From: a virus
Lineage: Duplodnaviria; Caudoviricetes
IMG/VR virus record: IMGVR_UViG_3300020045_005153
Span: 1-38,095 of that record
Reading direction: 5' to 3' (one strand)
DNA: 38,095 nucleotides
The position numbers and the translations under genes are program-made. Each line of letters begins with the position of its first letter. Positions within the stretch are counted from its first letter, which is position 1. Under the pieces are notes generated by a model. It was not told the origin of the DNA. It was given only the letters and a program-made list of their open reading frames with translations, and searched no databases. This document shows, in pieces, positions 8,246 through 37,646 of the stretch.

Positions 8246-9883
8246 ATGGCTGATACTACCTTTGTTGACTACGATATTTCTCTTGCGAATAGGATCGTAG
8301 CCGCTTGGTTGAATGACGTTAACAATCTTCGCTACGGTGCAGATAACGCTGCGAGAGGAGCCGCCCTGTTGCAATATCGGCGGGCAGACTCTGGGGCTGC
8401 AACCCGCACTGCACTGGCGAAGATGAATGACGTGATTAGCGTGAAAGACTTCGGTGCGACGGGGGACGGAGTAACGGATGACTATACGGCGATTGCGGCG
8501 GCAATTGCTGTCGCGAGTGTGTTGGGCGGGATAGTATTCTTCCCTGCAGGTACCTACAGGACTTCCGCCACCTTAAGTGTGCTGGCCAGTGGAGTCGTAC
8601 TACAAGGCGTTGGTGTACAGTCAATCATTATCTCCGACCTGGCCGTGACGCCTGCGATTAAGTTTGGAGATGCTCCTTCAGTAACAGGAGTCGTTCATTC
8701 GGGGATTAAGTCCATGAGAGTGACTCGTGCGACCGGCACACCGGACAACGCTAGTATTGGAATTGATTTCCAGTTATTCAACTACGCAATGGACGAAGAT
8801 GTACTGGTTGAACGGAGTGGGATTAACCGAAGGATAACGGGGAATAATCCAGGAATTTCAATCGAGTATGATTGCCTTCGTCCTTCCTCCCGTAATGCTA
8901 AGATCTATCATCTGCAGATTCAACATGTCGCCGGGGTTAAGATTTTCGGAGGCCAGCTCGGAATGAATGGGGGAGAGACTTGGGATTGCACAGCTATGAT
9001 CTGCGTTACCGGGGAAGCGAATGATGTGAACTTTGATTGCTTGAATGTTATTCCTACCGGACCTGATTCGGCGGCCCCTCCCGCCCTCCTGTTCGCCAGC
9101 TACACCAACACGACGGGCGTGTTTAAGTTAAGTAACTTCAATACAGAGAGTACTTCTTACTTCATCTCTTCCGACGCAAGCACACCTGTTATTACAGATC
9201 TGACAGTGGATGGTAGTCGTATTGCTACGGACACAGGCGTGTTTAACTTAAATGCGGCAACTCAGTTGATCCAGTTTTCCTCGTCCTCCACAGGCTACTC
9301 TTCTGCATTCACCCTGACAAATCCTAAGTGGATGACTCTTATGGGTACAGCGCACGGAGCTAATGTCTCCCTGATCGGCGGCGCAACCGCTTCTGCTAAC
9401 ATTACTGGTATTACGATGTTGGCAGGGAATCTTGTTGCCAGTGCCGCGTGGACTTACTTGGGGATTAGTGGAACAACTTACCCAGGTGCGGGTGCCCTGG
9501 CAAATACAGCTACAGGAACTGTATCCGTTTACGAGCACGCATTTCTGGTAACCGCGCCAACCGTTACCGCCAACACTAATGCTTTCACGACAGTAAGCGC
9601 CGCACTTGGGTATCAGCGGCAAGGTAATTTTGCACATTGCAAGGCTACCATTACGATCACGACAAACGGGACTGCAGCAGGATCAATCAAGTTTACATTG
9701 CCTGCTGATCTACCTGCTCCTGTCGGAGAATCTGTCGTTATGGCTCGACACAGCACCGGCGTGCTGATGTTTGGTAGAGTGCTGAACGGTTCACGCTTTG
9801 TGGATAACCTTGTTAAGTACGACGGTACGTACCTGGGTGGCGACGGTACGACAATAACGCTTGATTTCCAGTACCAGGTATGA
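8246..9883 (+). CDS. Tail spike / receptor-binding protein with pectate-lyase-like beta-helix
   Basis: 545 aa. N-terminal anchor 'IVAAWLNDVN', then 'SVKDFGATGDGVTDD..AI.AAI...GG.VFFPAGTY'. Confidence 0.8.
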   Translation: MADTTFVDYDISLANRIVAAWLNDVNNLRYGADNAARGAALLQYRRADSGAATRTALAKMNDVISVKDFGATGDGVTDDYTAIAAAIAVASVLGGIVFFPAGTYRTSATLSVLASGVVLQGVGVQSIIISDLAVTPAIKFGDAPSVTGVVHSGIKSMRVTRATGTPDNASIGIDFQLFNYAMDEDVLVERSGINRRITGNNPGISIEYDCLRPSSRNAKIYHLQIQHVAGVKIFGGQLGMNGGETWDCTAMICVTGEANDVNFDCLNVIPTGPDSAAPPALLFASYTNTTGVFKLSNFNTESTSYFISSDASTPVITDLTVDGSRIATDTGVFNLNAATQLIQFSSSSTGYSSAFTLTNPKWMTLMGTAHGANVSLIGGATASANITGITMLAGNLVASAAWTYLGISGTTYPGAGALANTATGTVSVYEHAFLVTAPTVTANTNAFTTVSAALGYQRQGNFAHCKATITITTNGTAAGSIKFTLPADLPAPVGESVVMARHSTGVLMFGRVLNGSRFVDNLVKYDGTYLGGDGTTITLDFQYQV

Positions 9884-18203: not shown

Positions 18204-18431
18204 TCAACAATCTTGGGCTGGTTTGGCAGGAAGATGCGTTCGCGCGGCGCAATCTTCACAGCGGGAAAGCTCCCCCGCGCGGAACAATTGCTGACGGCTC
18301 CGCACAGCTCGAGCAGTGACTCCCAGCCGGGCCGCGATGAGGGAGGGACTGCGGTAGAGAGTGTAGAACCGATGCTCGCAACAGTAGCCCATTCCGACGG
18401 TGATTAGATATTGGATAGAGTTTGGTTTCAT
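18204..18431 (-). CDS. Small helix-turn-helix protein with Cys pairs (putative regulator)
   Basis: 75 aa. 'SPSLIAARLGVTARAVRSR' HTH pattern, CCEH and CEDC; last gene of the - strand arm; no clear RBS. Confidence 0.55.
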   Translation of the reverse strand: MKPNSIQYLITVGMGYCCEHRFYTLYRSPSLIAARLGVTARAVRSRQQLFRAGELSRCEDCAARTHLPAKPAQDC

Positions 18432-18434
18432 CCG

Positions 18435-18464
18435 GGTGTCCGTTACATTGGTGTAATAGGTGCC
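18435..18464. promoter_or_regulatory. Palindromic operator-like site, copy 2 of 3
   Basis: GGTGTCC-GTTACA-TTGG-TGTAAT-AGGTGCC fills the gap upstream of the HTH gene. Confidence 0.6.
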
Positions 18465-19699
18465 TAATCAATCGGAGTGTCCGGCGTAATCACCGCCGAA
18501 GTCGGCTGAGGGAGTGGGTTCGCCGCCCGGATGTACATTCCTGTTGCGGTCGCGTCCATGATCAGTTGGCCACTCTGAATCGCCCCCGTCATGATCCCTT
18601 CGAAGTCCCGAAAGTCAGGGAAGTAGACGTGGATCATCTTGTAAGCGTCGGCGTAGGGGATACGGCCCTTCTTTCGTACGTACTCAATGAAGCGTTCCGC
18701 TTGCATACTGTCCTCGCTCCGCCCGATCTTACTGAACACCCGGTGCATGTCCTTCTCCAGGTCTTCCAGCATCGTGTTGGCGAGCTGGAGATCGTCCACA
18801 GTGATGCGAAGGGAGTCACTCTTACTGGCGGAGAGGATCATTGCTACCTTATGCATGTGGGTTTGCTTCCTGGCGGCATAGCCCTCGAGCATCTGATCGT
18901 CCATCCTGCTGGAAGCATCTTTCCAGAACGGCTCGTACCAGCCGCGGAACCAGTCCCGGGCCGCTGGCTCAATAACGAAGGGACCACAGAGCATAGCTAT
19001 CTGCTCAAGGTCGGAGATCAGAGCGAGGCGGTAGGCCTTATCTTCCTTCGTCACTACTTCATCCACGTAGGGGACATACTTATCTTTCATGTCTGCGTAG
19101 ATGAAGATGCAGCGGGAGAACAGTCCTCCTCCAATCATCGCCTGGGGTGCGTTGTCTGCGATCCAGTGGGGAGTAGTGCCCGCTTGGATATTGATCCAGG
19201 GGGCGTCGATCGTATCGTTCCCGCTCATCTTAGTGATCTTCTCATACTTCTTCTTCCCGTCCCAGAGTTCGATCAGGAGGTTTACCATGTCCTTATCTTG
19301 GAGGTTGAGAAGGGAGCCAAGCTCAGAGGCGGTCAGAGTGAGGGGACTCATCGGGTGCCACTCCGCGTTATACTCGAACGATTCCGAGGCTCCTGCAAAC
19401 GCTGTGACGAGGGCTTGCCAGGTAATTGCGTTAGGTCCGAACTTGATTCCGGGGACTTGCTGGAGAAGGTCGGCGGCAATGTCGATTGTAGTGGACTTAG
19501 CAACGATCCCCGGCGGCCCTACGTAGATGATGTAGAACGAGGGAGTCCACTGGAATCGTTTCATATCAATCCAGACCCGCCGCCGAAGACACCCTGCGAT
19601 CGTTCCCACTGCGGCCCAGAAGTGCATTCTCTTCGGGGCTTCGGTGACGGATGCGTATTCAAGGTAGGCGGGTATCCAATCTTTAAATTTCCTCGACAT
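18464..19699 (-). CDS. DUF3987-type P-loop NTPase (putative replicative helicase)
   Basis: 'TEAP..MHFW', Walker A variant 'YVGPPGIVAKST', Walker B-like 'ASELGSLL', 'L.ELWDG', 'GGGLFSRCIFIY'. Confidence 0.7.
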   Translation of the reverse strand: MSRKFKDWIPAYLEYASVTEAPKRMHFWAAVGTIAGCLRRRVWIDMKRFQWTPSFYIIYVGPPGIVAKSTTIDIAADLLQQVPGIKFGPNAITWQALVTAFAGASESFEYNAEWHPMSPLTLTASELGSLLNLQDKDMVNLLIELWDGKKKYEKITKMSGNDTIDAPWINIQAGTTPHWIADNAPQAMIGGGLFSRCIFIYADMKDKYVPYVDEVVTKEDKAYRLALISDLEQIAMLCGPFVIEPAARDWFRGWYEPFWKDASSRMDDQMLEGYAARKQTHMHKVAMILSASKSDSLRITVDDLQLANTMLEDLEKDMHRVFSKIGRSEDSMQAERFIEYVRKKGRIPYADAYKMIHVYFPDFRDFEGIMTGAIQSGQLIMDATATGMYIRAANPLPQPTSAVITPDTPID

Positions 19700-19880
19700 T
19701 TACTTCTTTCAAAGGTCTTGCTTGAAGAGGTCCTTGCAAAGTTTCGTGTGATAGAAGTCCTGTAAAGCGCATTATACGCTGACAACACACAGGAACTTTT
19801 AAAGCTACGGTCATAGGTGTAGGAGACCAGGTAAGATAATTACATTCATCACACTTAAATAGTCCGTATTTCACGTGCAT
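19683..19880 (-). CDS. Small Zn-ribbon-like hypothetical protein
   Basis: CDEC...VCC; AT-rich; overlaps both neighbours; start taken at MHVK. Confidence 0.5.
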   Translation of the reverse strand: MHVKYGLFKCDECNYLTWSPTPMTVALKVPVCCQRIMRFTGLLSHETLQGPLQARPLKEVNVEEI

Positions 19881-22420
19881 TCTCCCCAACTCAGTTCGGA
19901 GGTTTTAATCCCCGTGGGGATCACTAGTGGATCATCGTAAGGGACCACGATGCGAGCAGCCTCCTGCATCCGAGGCAGGAGATAGTCGCGCCGGTGGGTA
20001 GGGAACTGTCCTGCGAGTGAATCATGTACTTGAAGGAGTGTTTGCACTTCGGGCACATCGCGGTGAAAGTTAATCCAGCAGCGGTTGATGACAATCCCCA
20101 CAGTGGACTGGGGGACCCAGGCGACGGCGGCTGGCATGATATCGTCGGTAATGCGGTCAAAGATATACCAGCGATACCCGAACTTGTTTTCGACGAAGCG
20201 GAACTTTGTAACCTGACCAATGATGCGCTTGTGCCACGCTTCAATGCCTGGGTACCGGCTGAAATACTTCTTCTGTGCAAGATCGATTTCATGAACTCCC
20301 TTTCCAGTGTGAGCAGCCATTGTCTTGGCCTTACCGAGATAGTTGGTTCCGTGGCAGAATACCTTGGCGAATTCCCGAAGGTGCTTCCGAGGGCCGCGAT
20401 GGTCCCAGTACTTTGAGTGGGATTCCACCAGTTCTTCAAGGGGAGGCGGCTCCTTCCCTTCAATACCATACACGTTAAGAAGGTGCATATCCGCTCCAAG
20501 CTTCAGCGCGGCCTTCAGTGTAGAATCATCAGCTTCCCAAGCAACCACTTGCAGATCAGCTCGATCCAGGTCCATATCAAAGAAAGTGAAACCAGGGTCA
20601 GGCCCAAACATGCTACGAATATTAGGGAGCTGAAAGTCCATACTTCCCCGAGCAGCCGCCTTGCCAGCTGACTTCGACTTCTCAGAAGGTATGGTCTGCA
20701 AATTTCCTCCCGAACCGAAAGGATTCTTGCTACTGCTAAGTCGGTAAGAGTAGGGGGCGGATTTAACTCCTTCTTTCTCTGCATCTTTATCTCCTGCGTC
20801 ACCAGCTATGTTGAAGGAACAACGCATCCTCCCGTCGAAGTCGAGGGGCATTCCGACGAAGTCCTTTAGATACTTACGGAGGGTGCGTATGTCTGCGATT
20901 GCATTGCAGATAGGGAGGAGGAGAGGCTCCTTTCGGGCAATCTTGGTAAGGGCTTCGTCGTCGCAGGAAGGAGACATCTTCACGAACCCGTTCACGAAGG
21001 AACGCTTGAGGATCGGCGGCTGACGGAGGTCCTCGTAGAAGAGAGTCTGCATCTGCTTCGGAGAGGCGGGATTTATGGAATGGCCGAGGACTTTGAAGAG
21101 GAATGCCTCCCTGTGGGACAACTCCTCCTCGATATCCACCGCCATCTGCGCCTTCCGTTCGGGAAGGACGCGGACTCCCTTCAGCATCGCGCGGAGGACA
21201 GGGAAGAAGAGGGCTTGCTGCGTCGCCTCTACTTCCTTCAGCCCCATCACTTCTATTGACTTCTGTAGAACCTCCCCGACTTCCCGCGTGTAGACACAAT
21301 CTTGGAGATTGTAACGCCAGCGTTGCTCCTCGGGAACTTCGGAGTCGATCTTTCCTTCATCCTTCCAGTAGACGTACCAGTCGGCGTACATGGAGGCGAC
21401 GAAACCGAGGGACTTTTGCTGCGCGGCGAAGAGGGAGTGCTGGCTGATCATCGTGTCCTGGCCGCCGCGAGGAATGAAGTGCCAGTTGTGGTGGACAATC
21501 TGGGAGTCAAACAGGCCGTTATGCCAGCGAACGCGGACATTCTTGTGGGTGAGGAGACGGTAAAGCATGAAGACGATCTGCGCTTCCTCCTCAAGGGACC
21601 AGTATCCTTCCTTATTCTGGCGGCTCATGAAGGGGATGCAGATTGCCTCAGTGCGACTCCAGCCAATGCCGATACAGTCGATGTAAACGTGACCCTTCCC
21701 GCGAGTTTCAATGTCGAAGTCGAGCCATACTGGTTCTACACAATCTCTGCAATTAAATATTAATTTATTAAGTGTATCCCAGACAGTTTCGAAGATAGGA
21801 CGTACTTTAAATTTCCAAGTTGGCCGATTGTCATAGGTGCGAGAAGTCATATGCCGCTTCACCCGACGAAGATCGTTCAGGACAACCGCGCGGAGATTCC
21901 ATTCCTTGACGATGGCGGCGGGAGGGAGAGTGGGGATTACCTTTATTGGACTCTCCCCCCGTACAGACAAGTGTGCAGGTGTCTGTCCCTCGTGTCCTGT
22001 AAGGAGTTGCGACCCTCTCCACTTCGTAACTCCCCACTTACCTGTAAGGGCCCACATTGCGAGATTGCCGAAGGCGATGATGATGTTCGGCTGGACCATC
22101 TCGATTTCGGTCAGGAGTTCCTTGTAACCTTCTATTATTTCCTTGGTTACCCACTTATCCCGCAAGAGAGAGTGTGCTGGTCCCACGTCTTTCTTCTTCA
22201 GCGCCACGAAGGAAGAGATTTGACCAAGCGGCGGCCGAACCTTGCATACCGCCGTAGTGTAACACTCCGAACGCATAATCCCGGCTTCGTGGAGCATCCT
22301 ATTAAGTTCTGCTCCCCGGAAGGCGGCAAAGTAATATCCTTTCTCCGTCTCGTCATCATCAGGAGCTTCAGCGACCAGCATGATGCGAGAAGGGATTGGT
22401 CCGCTACCTTGAACCTTCAT
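19871..22420 (-). CDS. Family A DNA polymerase with N-terminal uracil-DNA-glycosylase-like domain and 3'-5' exonuclease
   Basis: UDG-like 'IMLVAEAP..VCKVRPP..PNIIIAFGNLA'; Exo I DFDIET, Exo II HNGLFD, Exo III YNLQD; RLSSS/NLQTIP; motif A DLDRAD, B REFAKVFCHGTNY, C QVHDS. Confidence 0.92.
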   Translation of the reverse strand: MKVQGSGPIPSRIMLVAEAPDDDETEKGYYFAAFRGAELNRMLHEAGIMRSECYTTAVCKVRPPLGQISSFVALKKKDVGPAHSLLRDKWVTKEIIEGYKELLTEIEMVQPNIIIAFGNLAMWALTGKWGVTKWRGSQLLTGHEGQTPAHLSVRGESPIKVIPTLPPAAIVKEWNLRAVVLNDLRRVKRHMTSRTYDNRPTWKFKVRPIFETVWDTLNKLIFNCRDCVEPVWLDFDIETRGKGHVYIDCIGIGWSRTEAICIPFMSRQNKEGYWSLEEEAQIVFMLYRLLTHKNVRVRWHNGLFDSQIVHHNWHFIPRGGQDTMISQHSLFAAQQKSLGFVASMYADWYVYWKDEGKIDSEVPEEQRWRYNLQDCVYTREVGEVLQKSIEVMGLKEVEATQQALFFPVLRAMLKGVRVLPERKAQMAVDIEEELSHREAFLFKVLGHSINPASPKQMQTLFYEDLRQPPILKRSFVNGFVKMSPSCDDEALTKIARKEPLLLPICNAIADIRTLRKYLKDFVGMPLDFDGRMRCSFNIAGDAGDKDAEKEGVKSAPYSYRLSSSKNPFGSGGNLQTIPSEKSKSAGKAAARGSMDFQLPNIRSMFGPDPGFTFFDMDLDRADLQVVAWEADDSTLKAALKLGADMHLLNVYGIEGKEPPPLEELVESHSKYWDHRGPRKHLREFAKVFCHGTNYLGKAKTMAAHTGKGVHEIDLAQKKYFSRYPGIEAWHKRIIGQVTKFRFVENKFGYRWYIFDRITDDIMPAAVAWVPQSTVGIVINRCWINFHRDVPEVQTLLQVHDSLAGQFPTHRRDYLLPRMQEAARIVVPYDDPLVIPTGIKTSELSWGECT

Positions 22421-29349: not shown

Positions 29350-29360
29350 TTAAGCACTCC

Positions 29361-29978: not shown

Positions 29979-30008
29979 TTTGGAGCACTCCTTCTATCTC
30001 AGGTTAAC

Positions 30009-31662: not shown

Positions 31663-31677
31663 TGGGGAGCACTCCTA

Positions 31678-31896: not shown

Positions 31897-31917
31897 GTTG
31901 AGCACTCCTTGGTTATG

Positions 31918-31947
31918 GGTATCGGTTACACCGTTGTAACGGGCATC
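31918..31947. promoter_or_regulatory. Palindromic operator-like site, copy 3 of 3
   Basis: GGTATCG-GTTACA-CCGT-TGTAAC-GGGCATC, just downstream of the promoter at 31956-31982. Confidence 0.6.
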
Positions 31948-31955
31948 GGTATTAA

Positions 31956-31982
31956 TATGACCGCAACTACGGCGGAAAGTTC
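31956..31982 (-). promoter_or_regulatory. SigmaE/AlgU-type promoter (variant -10)
   Basis: GAACTT-N16-TCATA, intergenic. Confidence 0.5.
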
Positions 31983-31995
31983 ACAAGTCTTTCAT

Positions 31996-32208
31996 TTACT
32001 TGCGGTTGAGGTCGGCGGCCTGTCCGCGCCGGGGATCGTTGTAGCGGTCGTCGGAAGTGTCACGCTCAGTGGTGGGATCACTTCGACGGGTGAAAAGGCC
32101 GGTGAAGAATTTGTCCAGCCGCTGGCGGCGAAGATGGAACCCCTCCCTCGCGTGGAGGACTGCTTCTTCTGGCGTGATAGACTCCCCGCAATGGCGACAA
32201 GTTGGCAT
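31996..32208 (-). CDS. Hypothetical protein (MPTCRHCG...)
   Basis: 70 aa, CxxC...H, GGAGTGCTC RBS. Confidence 0.65.
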   Translation of the reverse strand: MPTCRHCGESITPEEAVLHAREGFHLRRQRLDKFFTGLFTRRSDPTTERDTSDDRYNDPRRGQAADLNRK

Positions 32209-32224
32209 AACTGAGCACTCCTAA

Positions 32225-32553
32225 GATGTGCACTCCGTGGGGGAAACAAAGTCGTGGTCGCCGCAGCGTATCTACAGTCCGTCGGCTTAATAGCGCAAGC
32301 GCCTCGCCTTCTCTGTTAGACCAAGGGCCCTTACGGAATCCCTCGACCACTACCCTTGCCGCCTCTCCGTGGAGTGCTCAAACTTTCCGGGGAGACTCGC
32401 CTCTCGAGATGGCTCGGGGAGGCTGGTTGAGTATCCCAATATTTCAGGGCTTTCTCAGTGCCGCGACCACCTCGAGGGTGGCCTTGGCCTCACTTCATAC
32501 TAAGGGCGAAGTGAGTTGTTTCGTGTGACCAGGGGCCCTGCCCTGGCTGCTGC
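32225..32553 (-). ncRNA. Putative structured non-coding/leader RNA carrying an anti-RBS sequence
   Basis: Largest gene-free gap in this part of the - strand arm. Stems GCCAGGG/CCCUGGU, CUCACUUCG/UGAAGUGAG, GGCCACC/GGUGGUC and nested GCACUCC/GGAGUGC + GUGGUCG/CGACCAC; most G-U pairs favour the - strand. Ends are approximate. Confidence 0.55.
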
Positions 32554-33237
32554 TTACTCTCCTATAGTGTCCAGCTCCGCATTAGCATCTACACGTGCGG
32601 TCTTCGCCAGCTTCGCTTCCTCCAATCTTTTAATTATAATCCCCGTTTCCGTCCCTGCGACCCGGAAGGAATCGTAGAGCGCGCGACGAGTGAGCTCGGG
32701 ATCTTTCTCCAGCTTCCCTTGAATGTAAGCCTTGATCGCCTCGAGTGTGGTCGGCGGCTTGCCCTTCGCAGCATTCCGTGCGTTGGTCGCTTCGAGGATA
32801 GCTTGCACCACGATACTTGCACCACTGACTGACCCACCACCAGAAGCACGACCACGACCCCAGGAACCTTTCTGTATCACCGCATCTAGGTCATCCACCG
32901 CCAGGACCATGTCCTCTTCAGACAGCGGCTTGTCCGCCGTGGTGGCCAGCTCGTCCCCGTATTTCTGCTCACCCCCGTGCCCGAGGAACTGAGCGTAGAG
33001 GGAGAGAGGCGGGTAGAACGTACGAGTATCCCCGTTACGGAAGTCCATCCGAATCCCGACTGCGCCGGCCTGCATCTGAATCGTGTCGCCTTCAATCGCA
33101 ATCTTGCTCTCGTCAATAATCATATTCTTATCGACTTTCCGCTTGCCGGCGAAGCGAACCTCGCGGCCATCCTTCATCTGCACAGCGGTGTATTCCGTCT
33201 TACTCTTCGTTACTGTCTCTGCTTGTGCTTCAGCCAT
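32554..33237 (-). CDS. Conserved hypothetical protein (paralog of 36853-37239)
   Basis: 227 aa, RBS AGGAG; HG...K.GD..A and W...R motifs. Confidence 0.8.
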   Translation of the reverse strand: MAEAQAETVTKSKTEYTAVQMKDGREVRFAGKRKVDKNMIIDESKIAIEGDTIQMQAGAVGIRMDFRNGDTRTFYPPLSLYAQFLGHGGEQKYGDELATTADKPLSEEDMVLAVDDLDAVIQKGSWGRGRASGGGSVSGASIVVQAILEATNARNAAKGKPPTTLEAIKAYIQGKLEKDPELTRRALYDSFRVAGTETGIIIKRLEEAKLAKTARVDANAELDTIGE

Positions 33238-33297
33238 CTTAATACTCCTAGGTGTGTGCAGCCTCTGGATTGAACTGGCGGCTGCGGGATTCCAGTT

Positions 33298-33432
33298 TTA
33301 CTTGAACTTGTAGCGGGCTGCTTCGGCGGCCTGTCGTGTCTCCTTTGTCCATTCAACGGAAGTCCAAAGGCCGGAAGGCAGCTTATACCAGTTACGGAGA
33401 GGAAGTTCGTAACTAAGGGGAATTTTTACCAT
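33298..33432 (-). CDS. Hypothetical protein (44 aa, MVKIPLSYEL...)
   Basis: Translated by hand; ATG 3 nt after GGAGTGCTC. Confidence 0.6.
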   Translation of the reverse strand: MVKIPLSYELPLRNWYKLPSGLWTSVEWTKETRQAAEAARYKFK

Positions 33433-33643
33433 CTTGAGCACTCCGTTTTGTTGGTTGTAATGATTTGACAATCCCGCCGGGGTTGAGTTCCTCAGTCTTT
33501 TGATACTTTTTGAAAGTTTGTGTAGGATATTCCTTCTTACAATGGATGCAGGTTAAGTGAACTTCCAGGAATGTTCCTCCTGCCGGCGGCTCATGAGACT
33601 TCAATAAGTTCTCTGCTTGCCAGAAATGCGGAGGACACTTCAC
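33413..33643 (-). CDS. Small Zn-binding hypothetical protein
   Basis: GTG start behind GGAGG; CPPHFW...CIHC. Confidence 0.55.
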   Translation of the reverse strand: MKCPPHFWQAENLLKSHEPPAGGTFLEVHLTCIHCKKEYPTQTFKKYQKTEELNPGGIVKSLQPTKRSAQDGKNSP

Positions 33644-33819
33644 CTGCACGGTCCTCCGCAGAGCCACCAGTCCAAGCTAGCGACGACGGCGAAGATTCCT
33701 AACACTGCCAATACGAGCAAGAGGCCCATACAGCCTTCCTTCATTGTGTCCCACCTGCGCCGAGCGAGTCGGCGGCGCTCTCTTCGTTCAATTTCCTGCA
33801 TCATCGGGCTTTGTTCCAT
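33640..33819 (-). CDS. Small membrane protein (59 aa, MEQSPMMQEI...)
   Basis: Translated by hand; Arg-rich N-terminus plus one TM segment; GTGA overlap. Confidence 0.55.
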   Translation of the reverse strand: MEQSPMMQEIERRERRRLARRRWDTMKEGCMGLLLVLAVLGIFAVVASLDWWLCGGPCR

Positions 33820-34821: not shown

Positions 34822-34859
34822 GTAAGCACTCCTAGTATCCATGCAATCGCATGTATTGG

Positions 34860-34886
34860 TTAGACAGTTACTGCCGGGACGAGTTC
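34860..34886 (-). promoter_or_regulatory. SigmaE/AlgU-type promoter
   Basis: (G)GAACTC-N16-TCTAA, intergenic. Confidence 0.55.
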
Positions 34887-34898
34887 CGCAGCGTCCCG

Positions 34899-35237
34899 TT
34901 AACTGTCGAGGAGGATCTTCCCGCCCTCTAGCACCACTAGCCGCCCTTCTAGCACAAGTTGCATATCCCGCTCACAGTGTGCAATTTGTTCTTGCGTCCA
35001 TCCTTGCTTTTCCGCATACTCGTGGGAGAGTTCGTTGTAGGACTTACAGAACAAGCGGAGCGCTTTAACCGTTCGTGGACTTTTCTCTACTCCGAGAGAA
35101 AGCTGTTCGGCGATTTGTTTTATCAGCTTTGTATTTATGTAAAGGGCGAACATTTCCCTCCCGTGCTGCTGCGCAATGGAGCGGAATTTGGGAGGGAGAT
35201 CAAGGAATTGTTCCTGTGTTTCGTCGGGCGTGCTCAT
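34899..35237 (-). CDS. Hypothetical protein
   Basis: 112 aa, ATGA overlap. Confidence 0.7.
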   Translation of the reverse strand: MSTPDETQEQFLDLPPKFRSIAQQHGREMFALYINTKLIKQIAEQLSLGVEKSPRTVKALRLFCKSYNELSHEYAEKQGWTQEQIAHCERDMQLVLEGRLVVLEGGKILLDS

Positions 35238-35614
35238 AAGTATCCTAGCTCTTTTGCGAGTTTCCTGTCTGTGAAAGGTGTGTCCTCTATCTCATCTAGC
35301 ATCTTTGCTGGCGTTTCTTTCCTTTCCGTAACTTGTTGCTGCATCTTATCCACCATGTTTCCTTCTGGGAAGAGTTGCGGGTTCATTTCTCTGAAACGTT
35401 TTTCCGAAGCTGCTGCGTCATCATCTGTCTTAAGCGCAGGTATTGCCATATACGCTCCTCTACTCTTAATCGCCCTGTAAACCGTAGTCTCCCCTACTCC
35501 CATAATCTCCGCTATATCCATCATAGTGTGGAGTTGTTTCCCGTTTTCATCGGTAAGGGAATAGAGTCGTTTAATTTCCATCGCTGCGCTTGGTGTTAAA
35601 GTCTTTCTTGTCAT
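35234..35614 (-). CDS. Helix-turn-helix DNA-binding protein
   Basis: 'TMMDIAEIMGVGETTVYRAIK' HTH. Confidence 0.75.
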   Translation of the reverse strand: MTRKTLTPSAAMEIKRLYSLTDENGKQLHTMMDIAEIMGVGETTVYRAIKSRGAYMAIPALKTDDDAAASEKRFREMNPQLFPEGNMVDKMQQQVTERKETPAKMLDEIEDTPFTDRKLAKELGYL

Positions 35615-36282: not shown

Positions 36283-36303
36283 GCGAGCACTCCTTCTTGG
36301 TTC

Positions 36304-36354: not shown

Positions 36355-36777
36355 TTACACAAACAAATCTTTCAATGCCTCCAGTTTTTTCGCAGTAATG
36401 GGCGTAACTTGCCAAGCATCTATAATCACTGGCTGTCGTTTAATATCCCTATCCCAGTCATGCACAATACCTTCAATTACTGCAAAGGCGTGTCCATCCT
36501 TATGCACAATGTAGCGCCCGTGGGGGTGTAAAGCAATAAATACAGCTAATGTATCGCCTTTTACATCTGATAGTCTGGTCATTCCGAACCATGTTTCCAA
36601 CACTTTCCTCGTATTTTTCAGTGTAGTTCCTTTCTTAAGGATCCGTCCTGCCGCGCTGTAAATCGCACTAGCTTGCTCATACGAGCATCCTGCCGCACAA
36701 GCTAGCGCGCGAATTGAGCAATCATTCTTATCCCAAGCTACACGTGTAGCAGCATACTCATTTGAATTAGTTTGCAT
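36355..36777 (-). CDS. Papain/peptidase C39-like fold protein (putative)
   Basis: 'NDCSIRALA....SYE', 'GRYIV...GHAFAVIEG.VHDW' give a Cys-His-Asp arrangement; GGAGTGCTC RBS. Confidence 0.6.
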   Translation of the reverse strand: MQTNSNEYAATRVAWDKNDCSIRALACAAGCSYEQASAIYSAAGRILKKGTTLKNTRKVLETWFGMTRLSDVKGDTLAVFIALHPHGRYIVHKDGHAFAVIEGIVHDWDRDIKRQPVIIDAWQVTPITAKKLEALKDLFV

Positions 36778-36804
36778 TGAGCACTCCTTCTATTAAGCAC
36801 GCCC

Positions 36805-36853
36805 AAAAGGGGCATACAACAAGGCAGCCTGTCACGCTGCCCAATGTATGTCC
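36805..36853 (-). terminator. Terminator-like hairpin
   Basis: - strand CATACA..GGCAGC-loop-GCTGCC..TGTATG followed by CCCCTTTT, right after the stop at 36853. Confidence 0.4.
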
Positions 36854-37239
36854 TATTCGGACAATTCTGCCAACATGCGCTTCTGAACTTCCGCTTCCGC
36901 TTGTTCATACGTCAGCCCGAGCTTGGCCGCGATTGCGAGGATAGTCGGATTCTGTGGCGCAGCCCGTGTCCCCCCGCGAACGGTCCAGTCCGTGCTGTCC
37001 GATTGGTAATGATTGACCAGTTCAAGGACGGCCTCCCTACGCATTGCCTCCGTGACCGTGACCACATTCCCGTTCTTATCCTTCCTCGCAATTGCCGCGT
37101 TATCCCCAATCCTTGCTTGCCACCCATGCATCTCCGCATACGCGCGATTAGGCGCACTAACTTTAGTTGCATCGAACATTACGCTGTCCAGCCCGTCGAA
37201 AGTGAATGTAACGATTGTCCCGCTGATTTGTTTTTTCAT
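36853..37239 (-). CDS. Hypothetical protein (paralog of 32554-33237)
   Basis: Start taken at MKKQISG, 4 nt after GGAGTGCTC; 'MHGWQARIGDNAA'. Confidence 0.75.
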   Translation of the reverse strand: MKKQISGTIVTFTFDGLDSVMFDATKVSAPNRAYAEMHGWQARIGDNAAIARKDKNGNVVTVTEAMRREAVLELVNHYQSDSTDWTVRGGTRAAPQNPTILAIAAKLGLTYEQAEAEVQKRMLAELSE

Positions 37240-37241
37240 GA

Positions 37242-37334
37242 TTGAGCACTCCATTAGTTAGACCAATATTGGTCTGATGTTGGGAACATTCCCGCATTAC
37301 GCACTGTTAGACAATGCGCAATACGCGAAGTTCA
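37242..37334 (-). repeat. Promoter + hairpin + extended-RBS cassette, copy B
   Basis: ~93 bp similar to 37554-37646; GAACTT-N16-TCTAA at 37307-37333. Confidence 0.75.
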
Positions 37335-37335
37335 T

Positions 37336-37554
37336 TTATTTCCGTCGATGTATCTGCCCTCGTGCGCGCATTAGTGCATTCCTGAAATGCACGAATCGAC
37401 CAATTGTAATGTCGGGATTACGTGGGTCTTGCACATAATACATTCCATCGTCAGGATTGTAGGACAATTGGCATCCGTTACAGATTCCCTGATTTACCGC
37501 GATTAGTCCGTTATCGTGGTAAGTTACCCCATGCCTTAAATGTTTATGTTTCAT
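37336..37554 (-). CDS. Hypothetical protein
   Basis: Start taken at MKHKHLR, 1 nt after GGAGTGCTC. Confidence 0.7.
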   Translation of the reverse strand: MKHKHLRHGVTYHDNGLIAVNQGICNGCQLSYNPDDGMYYVQDPRNPDITIGRFVHFRNALMRARGQIHRRK

Positions 37555-37646
37555 TGAGCACTCCATTTAGTTAGTTCCTGTTGGGACAGGTTGGGAACAT
37601 TCCCACAATACCCACTAGTTAGACAATGGGCATTATGTGAAGTTCA
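37554..37646 (-). repeat. Promoter + hairpin + extended-RBS cassette, copy A
   Basis: ~93 bp similar to 37242-37334; GAACTT-N16-TCTAA at 37619-37645. Confidence 0.75.

Follow-up and report, generated by a model that had tools for sequence, protein, structure and literature searches.

A conserved hairpin RNA whose loop changes together with a shared ribosome-binding tag of early genes: a candidate multi-target antisense element in a phage family

We describe a hairpin behind a 227-aa gene of a virus genome, which the comparison of related sequences indicates is a real and conserved RNA element with unusually good comparative support for pairing with multiple targets. Its loop is complementary to a tag in the ribosome-binding sites of eleven early genes, loop and tag change together across phages, and tags that deviate from the loop prefer changes that keep a G-U pair. 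On these grounds the hairpin is probably an antisense RNA derived from the 3' end of a transcript, which would pair in trans with the early-gene tags and block translation of the early regulon.

The window, by which we mean the whole stretch of DNA that was analysed, comprises an entire virus record of 38,095 bases (linear, estimated to be 84% complete). Structural genes lie on the + strand, and the - strand carries the genes for a primase, a DNA polymerase, a methyltransferase, a Sak4-like protein and an exonuclease together with many small unnamed early genes. By polymerase the closest annotated records are MW202489 (45%) and Microcystis phage Mel-JY34 (40%), and the only match to the locus search in the genome collection is a contig in a Gammaproteobacteria assembly. 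Among 65 open reading frames (ORFs) scanned in this 84% complete genome no integrase or repressor family was found; the same scan gave no antirepressor family, the tagged genes being unnamed. On the strand opposite the primase gene runs an open frame of 447 aa (18422-19765, +), which has no PHROG match and is probably a shadow frame.

The original prediction of a common motif before eleven early genes is borne out: GGAGTGCT is found directly upstream of the ATG in all eleven, each on the early strand, with a complete GGAG 6-9 nt before the ATG in 11/11 cases. The tags are located at 37553-37564 (72-aa gene, first after a sigma-E-like promoter box at 37645), 37241-37252 (128-aa gene, first after the box at 37333), 36777-36787 (140-aa gene, phrog_3754, unknown function), 36285-36293 (64-aa gene), 34824-34832 (59-aa gene, first after the box at 34886; a C-to-U variant that keeps a G-U pair), 33434-33444 (44-aa gene, first after the 33490 box), 32212-32221 (in the ribosome-binding site of the gene next after the hairpin, 70 aa, ATG at 32208), 31898-31908 (72-aa gene, first after the box at 31982), 31667-31675 (203-aa gene), 29983-29991 (205-aa gene, phrog_17909/10141, unknown function) and 29352-29360 (95-aa gene, C-to-U variant), all on the - strand. 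Recomputed Watson-Crick runs with the loop are, in the same order, 12, 12, 11, 9, 8, 11, 10, 11, 9, 9 and 8 nt, identical to the lengths given in the prediction. Predicted tag-loop duplex energies lie between -17.5 and -21.8 kcal/mol; for 71 untagged SD-ATG sites the mean is -8.1 and the best value -12.2.

The core word GGAGTGCTC occurs nine times on the - strand, always before an ATG, and a single time on the + strand (32371-32379). If the C-to-T variant is allowed (GGAGTGCTY) the counts become 11 reverse and 1 forward, against 0 and 0 for a reversed-pattern control. The claim that only one inverted copy exists thus holds for the 9-mer but not for the 8-mer, whose complement is also present in coding regions at 21434-21441 (inside the polymerase ORF) and 1427-1434 and ties with the loop in an 8-nt genome scan. 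Because of these two further places the window alone would not exclude chance. Complementarity of 9-12 nt is reached in the window only by the hairpin loop.

On the - strand the core hairpin P2 (32361-32396) consists of a GUC/GGC base, a variable stem and a loop that holds the anti-tag seed (32370-32382); the hairpin follows from the fold, the alignment with 38 relatives and stem covariation, the seed from sequence match, fold and alignment. In a fragment that ends at the pyrimidine tail the outer pairs of P2 have a probability of 0.84-0.87, and the best short fold has some pairing inside the loop that involves the 3' half of the seed (unpaired probability 0.08-0.76). Compared with all 38 aligned relatives the loop has a one-base insertion, and the window tags carry the matching extra base. 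Hairpin P1 (32399-32423, -) is linked to P2 by a conserved RA dinucleotide, an order which by eye is the same in relatives. The GGCACTGAG box (32454-32462, -), at whose place many relatives have GCACTAGGA, is possibly the 5' part of the RNA as judged from the contexts of relatives; a loop-independent pattern matched 10 loci. P3, the third helix, which contains a long insert specific to this phage, and a pyrimidine tail (32239-32353, -) would form the 3' end of the active RNA, according to the fold and the tails of relatives. No terminator was called at this tail by a simple scan, and by consensus it would be a weak one.

Folding of the full gap gives z = -2.07 (4/100 shuffles are equally good), which is modest alone. 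The predicted nested domain GUGGUCG/CGACCAC is supported, with a pair probability of 0.99-1.0 in three of the four fragments folded. A second GUGGUCGC at 32463-32470 had been proposed as competing partner and switch; this part is not supported, as its pair probability is 0.0 in the three longer folds, it replaces the nested helix only in the fragment that begins at that very word, and it has no counterpart in the contexts of the relatives inspected. A comparison with Rfam, suggested along with the prediction, returned no family up to E 10 in window 31900-33700 and none at gathering score in 14 related loci, and the gap DNA has no similarity match in annotated phages. The possibility that the gap codes for protein, which had been raised against the RNA, was rejected: hairpin-spanning SD-led ORFs of at least 50 aa are present in 2/66 elements (sense) and 9/66 (antisense), and the lengths of the hairpin cores are distributed over all three frames (32, 18 and 16). 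An HDV-like ribozyme topology was rejected as well, with just 0-2 bases between the seed and the 3' stem.

Relatives were gathered through the upstream 227-aa gene (loci L001-L176), which together with the window gives 177 sequences, 172 with a complete gene end and 127 distinct. A search behind the gene that was blind to the loop sequence yielded 66 distinct hairpin cores; from these L077 and L083 were removed as false structures, and with 13 loops added by eye the set comprises 77 distinct elements. The commonest scaffold reads C-RA-GUC, a variable stem of 4-7 pairs, the loop, the complementary arm, GGC-GG and, after a third hairpin, a pyrimidine tail. In the second type the flanks are CCCTTTAC and GGGGC, and a few elements are a plain long hairpin. 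In the alignment of relatives sequence conservation is seen at the hairpin base but not in the stem.

For the covariation count 59 elements were chosen by their anchors and loop word, without a requirement on the stem. Stem positions 4-8 are paired in 232/295 cells, compared with 127.7 +/- 7.7 for shuffled arms (maximum 162 in 2000); a second anchoring rule gives 227/295 paired cells, and 23 G-U against 10 A-C combinations. At the hairpin base a U-G pair is invariant, but the search pattern required it and it is not counted as evidence. A covariance model built on a MAFFT alignment has 64% of cells paired, and 67% after a slide of one column; the register of this model is poor and we therefore rely on the anchored counts. 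With this model the window scores only 23.4 bits (E 0.036), and elements of the second scaffold type are missed.

The element is closely linked to its upstream gene: given enough upstream DNA, 27/30 pattern matches that form the stem lie behind a homolog of the 227-aa protein, against 1/55 for stem-less matches. One of the three exceptions (L330) has a C-terminal remnant of the homolog upstream, which appears to be interrupted by an insertion. The window-type pattern was also searched, and among the 119 listed of about 270 matches there was neither a relative with the window tag class nor a match that combined stem and tags. No hairpin element was found in the distant homologs L077, L079, L082, L083, L091, L093 and Mel-JY34.

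Between homolog and hairpin L021 (2839-3202, on a contig shared with L001) has a non-coding stretch resembling a group I intron, matching RF00028 at 27.1 bits (E 1e-4, under the gathering score of 50). A tRNA-Met gene takes this place at L160:8810-8884 (L017:6810-6881), one of 21 loci scanned containing a tRNA, and L002 and L009 have an extra ORF there that by eye is HNH endonuclease-like. In the distant relative L082, which lacks the scaffold, a hairpin behind the homolog (8660-8700) has a loop complementary to an A-rich AAAGGAA start motif.

The idea was to be refuted by relatives keeping the tag without its antisense copy; we find the opposite, as loop and tag co-vary. The majority class combines a tag with GGCTCA core and a complementary loop. 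In the window class (GTGCTC) there are 9 own tags and 0 of the majority type, in the L123 class (GTCTCA) 4 and 0, and further variant classes are GACTCA (L071, L176), GACTAA (L020), GGCACC or GGCAAC (L013, L174) and GGCTCG (L065, L067). The class of the loop itself is the top or joint-top tag class in 58/60 loci of at least 5 kb. For loci with a variant loop this is the case in 9/10, a number reached in 0/20000 label permutations (maximum 5), though the loci are related and the permutation and Fisher values consequently overstate independence. The same tag class is kept by 50/60 loci. In a quick tree of 74/77 proteins, whose long branches are unsure (L071 above all), the variant classes are found on different branches, interspersed with majority rows (L123 is next to L114, for instance, and L100 next to L045). 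A first swap test (26 wins, 20 ties and 15 losses of 61) was uninformative because the classes overlapped, and was redone with distinct cores.

A few loci do not fit. L105 combines a changed loop with tags of the majority type, none of the starts in L049 reaches an 8-nt match, L045 and L094 are without an own-class 7-mer tag, and in phages with a GAGCCCC loop the match to the tags is only 7 nt. Window-type tags further occur in 12 start-linked cases in 50 majority-loop loci (L049, L053, L099 and others), where only bulged pairing can be formed; these are possibly an intermediate in which the tag gained its base before the loop did.

The nature of the reader can be approached from tags with a single change. 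At inner positions 5-7 in 58 majority loci, 20/27 such tags are start-linked when a G-U pair is kept, against 15/88 otherwise. If the 250 nt that follow the loop are left out, the figures are 19/25 and 14/83 (Fisher p = 8e-8, for related loci). The pair-breaking transition T>C is start-linked in 0/12 cases, so a transition bias does not explain the preference; C>A is start-linked in 5/15, and a taste for A+T therefore does not fully explain it either. Position 8 lacks a G-U bias (8/19 versus 16/37). Exact start-linked tags lie on both sides of the hairpin, with 70 upstream of it, 33 within 250 nt after it and 32 farther on. Both the G-U bias and this spread are evidence, at the level of sequence, that the tags would be read by RNA pairing in trans.

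Directly downstream of the hairpin the window has a tag copy that precedes no start codon (32230-32236, -), with a 7-nt Watson-Crick run to the loop. This decoy, as it was originally called, is confirmed in the window and conserved in relatives: within 170 nt after the hairpin a tag copy is present in 49/58 elements, two or more in 42 and a start-less one in 37, and upstream controls gave 17 and 3 of 58. The copies mostly lie 47-72 nt past the hairpin. In the long form of the window RNA the loop pairs with the decoy and the hairpin is lost (0.0-0.01), while the form that ends at the tail keeps it (0.84-0.87). Similarly, among 56 elements folded the hairpin is kept in 39 short forms against 19 long forms that include the next tag copy, and the loop is paired downstream in 32/56 long forms; the folding program does not consider pseudoknots, which the loop-tag spacing would allow. 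The seed-decoy fold that had been proposed thus stands as an alternative for RNA that runs past the tail, whereas the conserved fold is the hairpin loop at 32396-32361, which had gone undescribed. Likewise, the idea of two folds is retained in that both are found in prediction, but the switch between them would be the position of the 3' end and not the second GUGGUCGC.

Boxes of the type GAAC(T/C)-N16-17-GTCNAA/GTCATA are found 8 times on the - strand, 7 of these in the early region (37924, 37645, 37333, 35690, 34886, 33490 and 31982), and 2 times on the + strand. They resemble the E. coli sigma-E motifs GGAACTT and GGTCAAAA as given in PMC1312014; for Neisseria TCTAA is given (PMC2893595). 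In five cases out of 11, the tagged gene is the first to follow such a box. In relatives a sigma-E-like box precedes 78/221 tagged starts against 62/1054 other SD starts, by patterns that were shaped after viewing the boxes of the window itself. The boxes suggest that the phage family may use an envelope-stress sigma factor of its host for early transcription.

The box at 33464-33490 (-), matched to the consensus in PMC1312014, would drive the tagged 44-aa gene, the 227-aa gene and the hairpin RNA. Between the stop codon and the hairpin a sigma-E-like box occurs in 0/64 elements; within 900 nt upstream of the gene it is present in 34/64, with a tag next in 25 of them. From this arrangement we infer that a tagged early transcript carries the hairpin RNA as its tail. 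Some relatives have sigma-70-type boxes at a matching place after the hairpin. The first gene after the 35690 box is untagged and codes for a protein of 126 aa (35234-35614, -), a candidate transcription regulator whose N-terminus weakly matches a helix-turn-helix (best E 2.4e-4, below the cut-off).

The 227-aa gene (32554-33237, -) immediately upstream of the hairpin belongs to a large unnamed phage family, with 285 relatives at E <=0.001 in a representative search. Its ribosome-binding site has no tag in the window and in 19 relatives inspected. No named family or fold was found in PHROGs, Pfam, Atlas, Foldseek, VIA-align and a PDB sequence search, which does not imply a new fold. The AlphaFold model is confident (pLDDT 82.8) and has an N-terminal beta region and a helical C-terminal half, in which residues 135-200 weakly match NasR, EutV, Rv1626 and AmiR (Z 3.9-4.5, rmsd 1.8-2.6 A over 50-52 residues), which we take to be ANTAR-type RNA-binding regulators; these matches are no more than a lead. 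Of 39 Pfam families for 132 members, the 25 listed include no ANTAR. The protein family is much wider than the RNA, as Mel-JY34 has the gene without tag or loop. A second homolog is located 3.7-5.2 kb upstream in five relatives, and Mel-JY34 has homologs in two places. The tagged 128-aa protein (36853-37239, -) shows a weak similarity to the central part of the 227-aa family (hhalign probability 14%, E 0.002).

Taken as a mechanism, host RNA polymerase with a sigma-E-type factor would produce several early transcripts whose first genes are tagged, and one of these transcripts would end in the hairpin RNA. Having no promoter box of the sigma-E type of its own, this RNA would build up with a delay. 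Its open loop would then pair over 8-12 nt across the Shine-Dalgarno sequence and the spacer up to the start codon, by which the 30S subunit would be excluded. In known antisense systems pairing over the Shine-Dalgarno sequence and spacer blocks 30S binding, and it is from where the pairing falls that we infer repression rather than activation. Read-through past the tail would add the decoy tag, so that the loop is captured in cis, the molecule becomes inactive and the site of the next gene stays free. The outcome would be a delayed negative-feedback timer on early protein synthesis.

Other readings of the same data have to be weighed against this one. The RNA might serve mainly for superinfection exclusion or immunity: an incoming phage that shares the tag would have its early messages silenced, and tags would diversify as a means of escape. 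Tag classes have indeed switched several times among close relatives, heteroimmunity of P1 and P7 rests on c4 (PMC12197685), and the mycobacteriophage Anaya, discussed below, has an inverted tag in a hairpin loop that TM4 lacks in the 22.8 kb examined. Nonetheless, a single tag class in 50/60 loci is slow for an escape race, neither an integrase nor a repressor family turned up in the 65 ORFs scanned of this 84% complete genome, the single locus from the genome collection gives no indication of a long-lived prophage state, and the visible targets are the phage's own tags; we regard this purpose as unlikely. We are somewhat more sceptical of activation or licensing, in which pairing of the RNA with the tag, perhaps together with a protein, brings ribosomes to the messages or protects them from decay. 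It would explain why the spacer is the best-conserved part of the tag, why the purine run before it is weaker in some phages and why the tagged genes are the first of early units, where strong output is needed. However, a full GGAG 6-9 nt before the ATG in 11/11 window tags needs no helper, the Shine-Dalgarno sequence itself lies inside the duplex, and the RNA would come after its targets.

It might also be argued that the loop acts in cis only, as a pseudoknot-like switch on the next gene through pairing with the adjacent decoy or ribosome-binding site, while a protein reads the other tags and the loop follows the tag solely via local pairing. The frequent repetition of tag copies after the hairpin (two or more in 42/58 elements, mostly 47-72 nt on) and the loop-decoy pairing in read-through folds are as such a reading would expect; yet the G-U bias at distant tags fits RNA pairing and not protein reading, L160, L164, L085, L090 and others have no tag core 25-125 bases after the loop and still combine a loop with 2-5 matching starts, and tag class does not follow the tree of the 227-aa protein. 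All in all we consider it very unlikely. Even less probable in our view is a guide RNA, whose conserved hairpin base is bound by the 227-aa protein as chaperone, blocker or nuclease adaptor. The hairpin base is conserved in sequence and the stem variable, the gene's own ribosome-binding site is free of the tag, the four regulators presumed to be of the ANTAR type are among the best structural matches of residues 135-200, and 27/30 stem-forming matches lie behind the homolog, with a C-terminal remnant before a 28th. Against it, Z scores of 3.9-4.5 over about 50 residues are within background, the protein family is far wider than the RNA, and fixed gene order alone would explain the linkage. Least of all can we credit chance, or a repeat at the level of DNA, for example an operator of which one copy is inverted: the window does hold three copies of the 8-mer complement and the tag is near-palindromic, but stem covariation, loop-tag covariation and the G-U bias all speak against it, and none of the 119 listed of about 270 window-type matches combines a stem with tags. 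Antisense repression of the early regulon in trans therefore remains the reading that we prefer.

The original statement that no described phage system has this layout was too strong. Pope et al. 2011 (PMC3203893) report for Cluster K mycobacteriophages the SAS, a private 13-bp motif that overlaps the Shine-Dalgarno sequence of many non-structural genes and extends past the part pairing with 16S rRNA, with a single inverted copy, not start-linked, in Anaya, Adephagia, Angelica and CrimD. Extended SAS inverted repeats lie upstream of about half the tags (PMC3203893). The passages on SAS in that paper leave open whether RNA or protein binds it, give no mechanism and no covariation, and do not tie the inverted copy to a hairpin. 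In 24.8 kb of Anaya (JF704106) we counted 14 sense SAS and one inverted, intergenic copy (L413:23871-23883, between genes 96 and 97), which is placed at the tip of a long hairpin in the predicted fold, where ten bases fall in the loop. No inverted SAS was found in the 22.8 kb of TM4 examined, and searching the Anaya stretch with our covariance model gave nothing at E <=1. Both systems have a repeated motif at the ribosome-binding position, in one orientation and before ATG starts (here 11/11), plus a single start-less inverted copy; they differ in the word (a 13-bp consensus there, a different one of 8-12 nt here), the host group and the RNA scaffold.

The c4 RNA of P1 and P7 is reported to pair around a ribosome-binding site through sequences that are likely placed in loops, to block translation and to differ in specificity between related phages (PMC12197685). 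Display of a complement of the ribosome-binding region in a loop is likewise predicted here. However, c4 acts on one message (ant) according to that source, whereas here one loop faces 11 start sites in what appear to be at least five transcription units, and RF01695 has no match in window 31900-33700 or the 14 related loci. P22 sar and lambda OOP are also phage RNAs that control phage genes by base pairing, but are described with one target gene each and not as readers of a multi-target tag (PMC12197685). The position of the hairpin, 3' of a coding gene on the same strand and without a promoter box of the scanned type, is that of a small RNA derived from a 3'UTR. Of these CpxQ is a bacterial example; bacterial 3'UTR small RNAs typically use Hfq and unrelated target sites, not a shared tag that co-evolves. 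For PAK_P3 the 3'UTR-derived candidates are presented without assigned targets (PMC10914365). We found no published description of this RNA or of a multi-target anti-RBS phage RNA in the open full-text literature and the openings of abstracts, and the loop words are absent from seven supplementary files of Fremin 2023 (PMC10690425), though the family may be among the candidates elsewhere in that work. The hairpin RNA belongs to neither the c4 nor the SAS family; its mode of action is likely that of c4, and its layout is that of SAS.

Since the inverted SAS of Anaya falls in a predicted hairpin loop, a question open since 2011 becomes testable in a cultured phage. In the present family about seven loop-tag classes provide natural compensatory alleles that can be swapped in a reporter assay, and orthogonal loop-tag pairs could act as translation switches in synthetic biology. 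The furthest-reaching picture is that of an RNA-only, reprogrammable master switch of a lytic phage, with address tags on the first genes of all sigma-E-driven early units, gated by its own decoy, carried by an unnamed neighbour protein, defining exclusion groups and belonging to a class that has arisen repeatedly, is widespread and accounts for the Cluster K SAS as well; as a whole we think this doubtful, if conceivable. In phages without a repressor or a polymerase of their own the shut-off of early genes is mostly unexplained, and the element described here would offer a mechanism for it that is defined in sequence.
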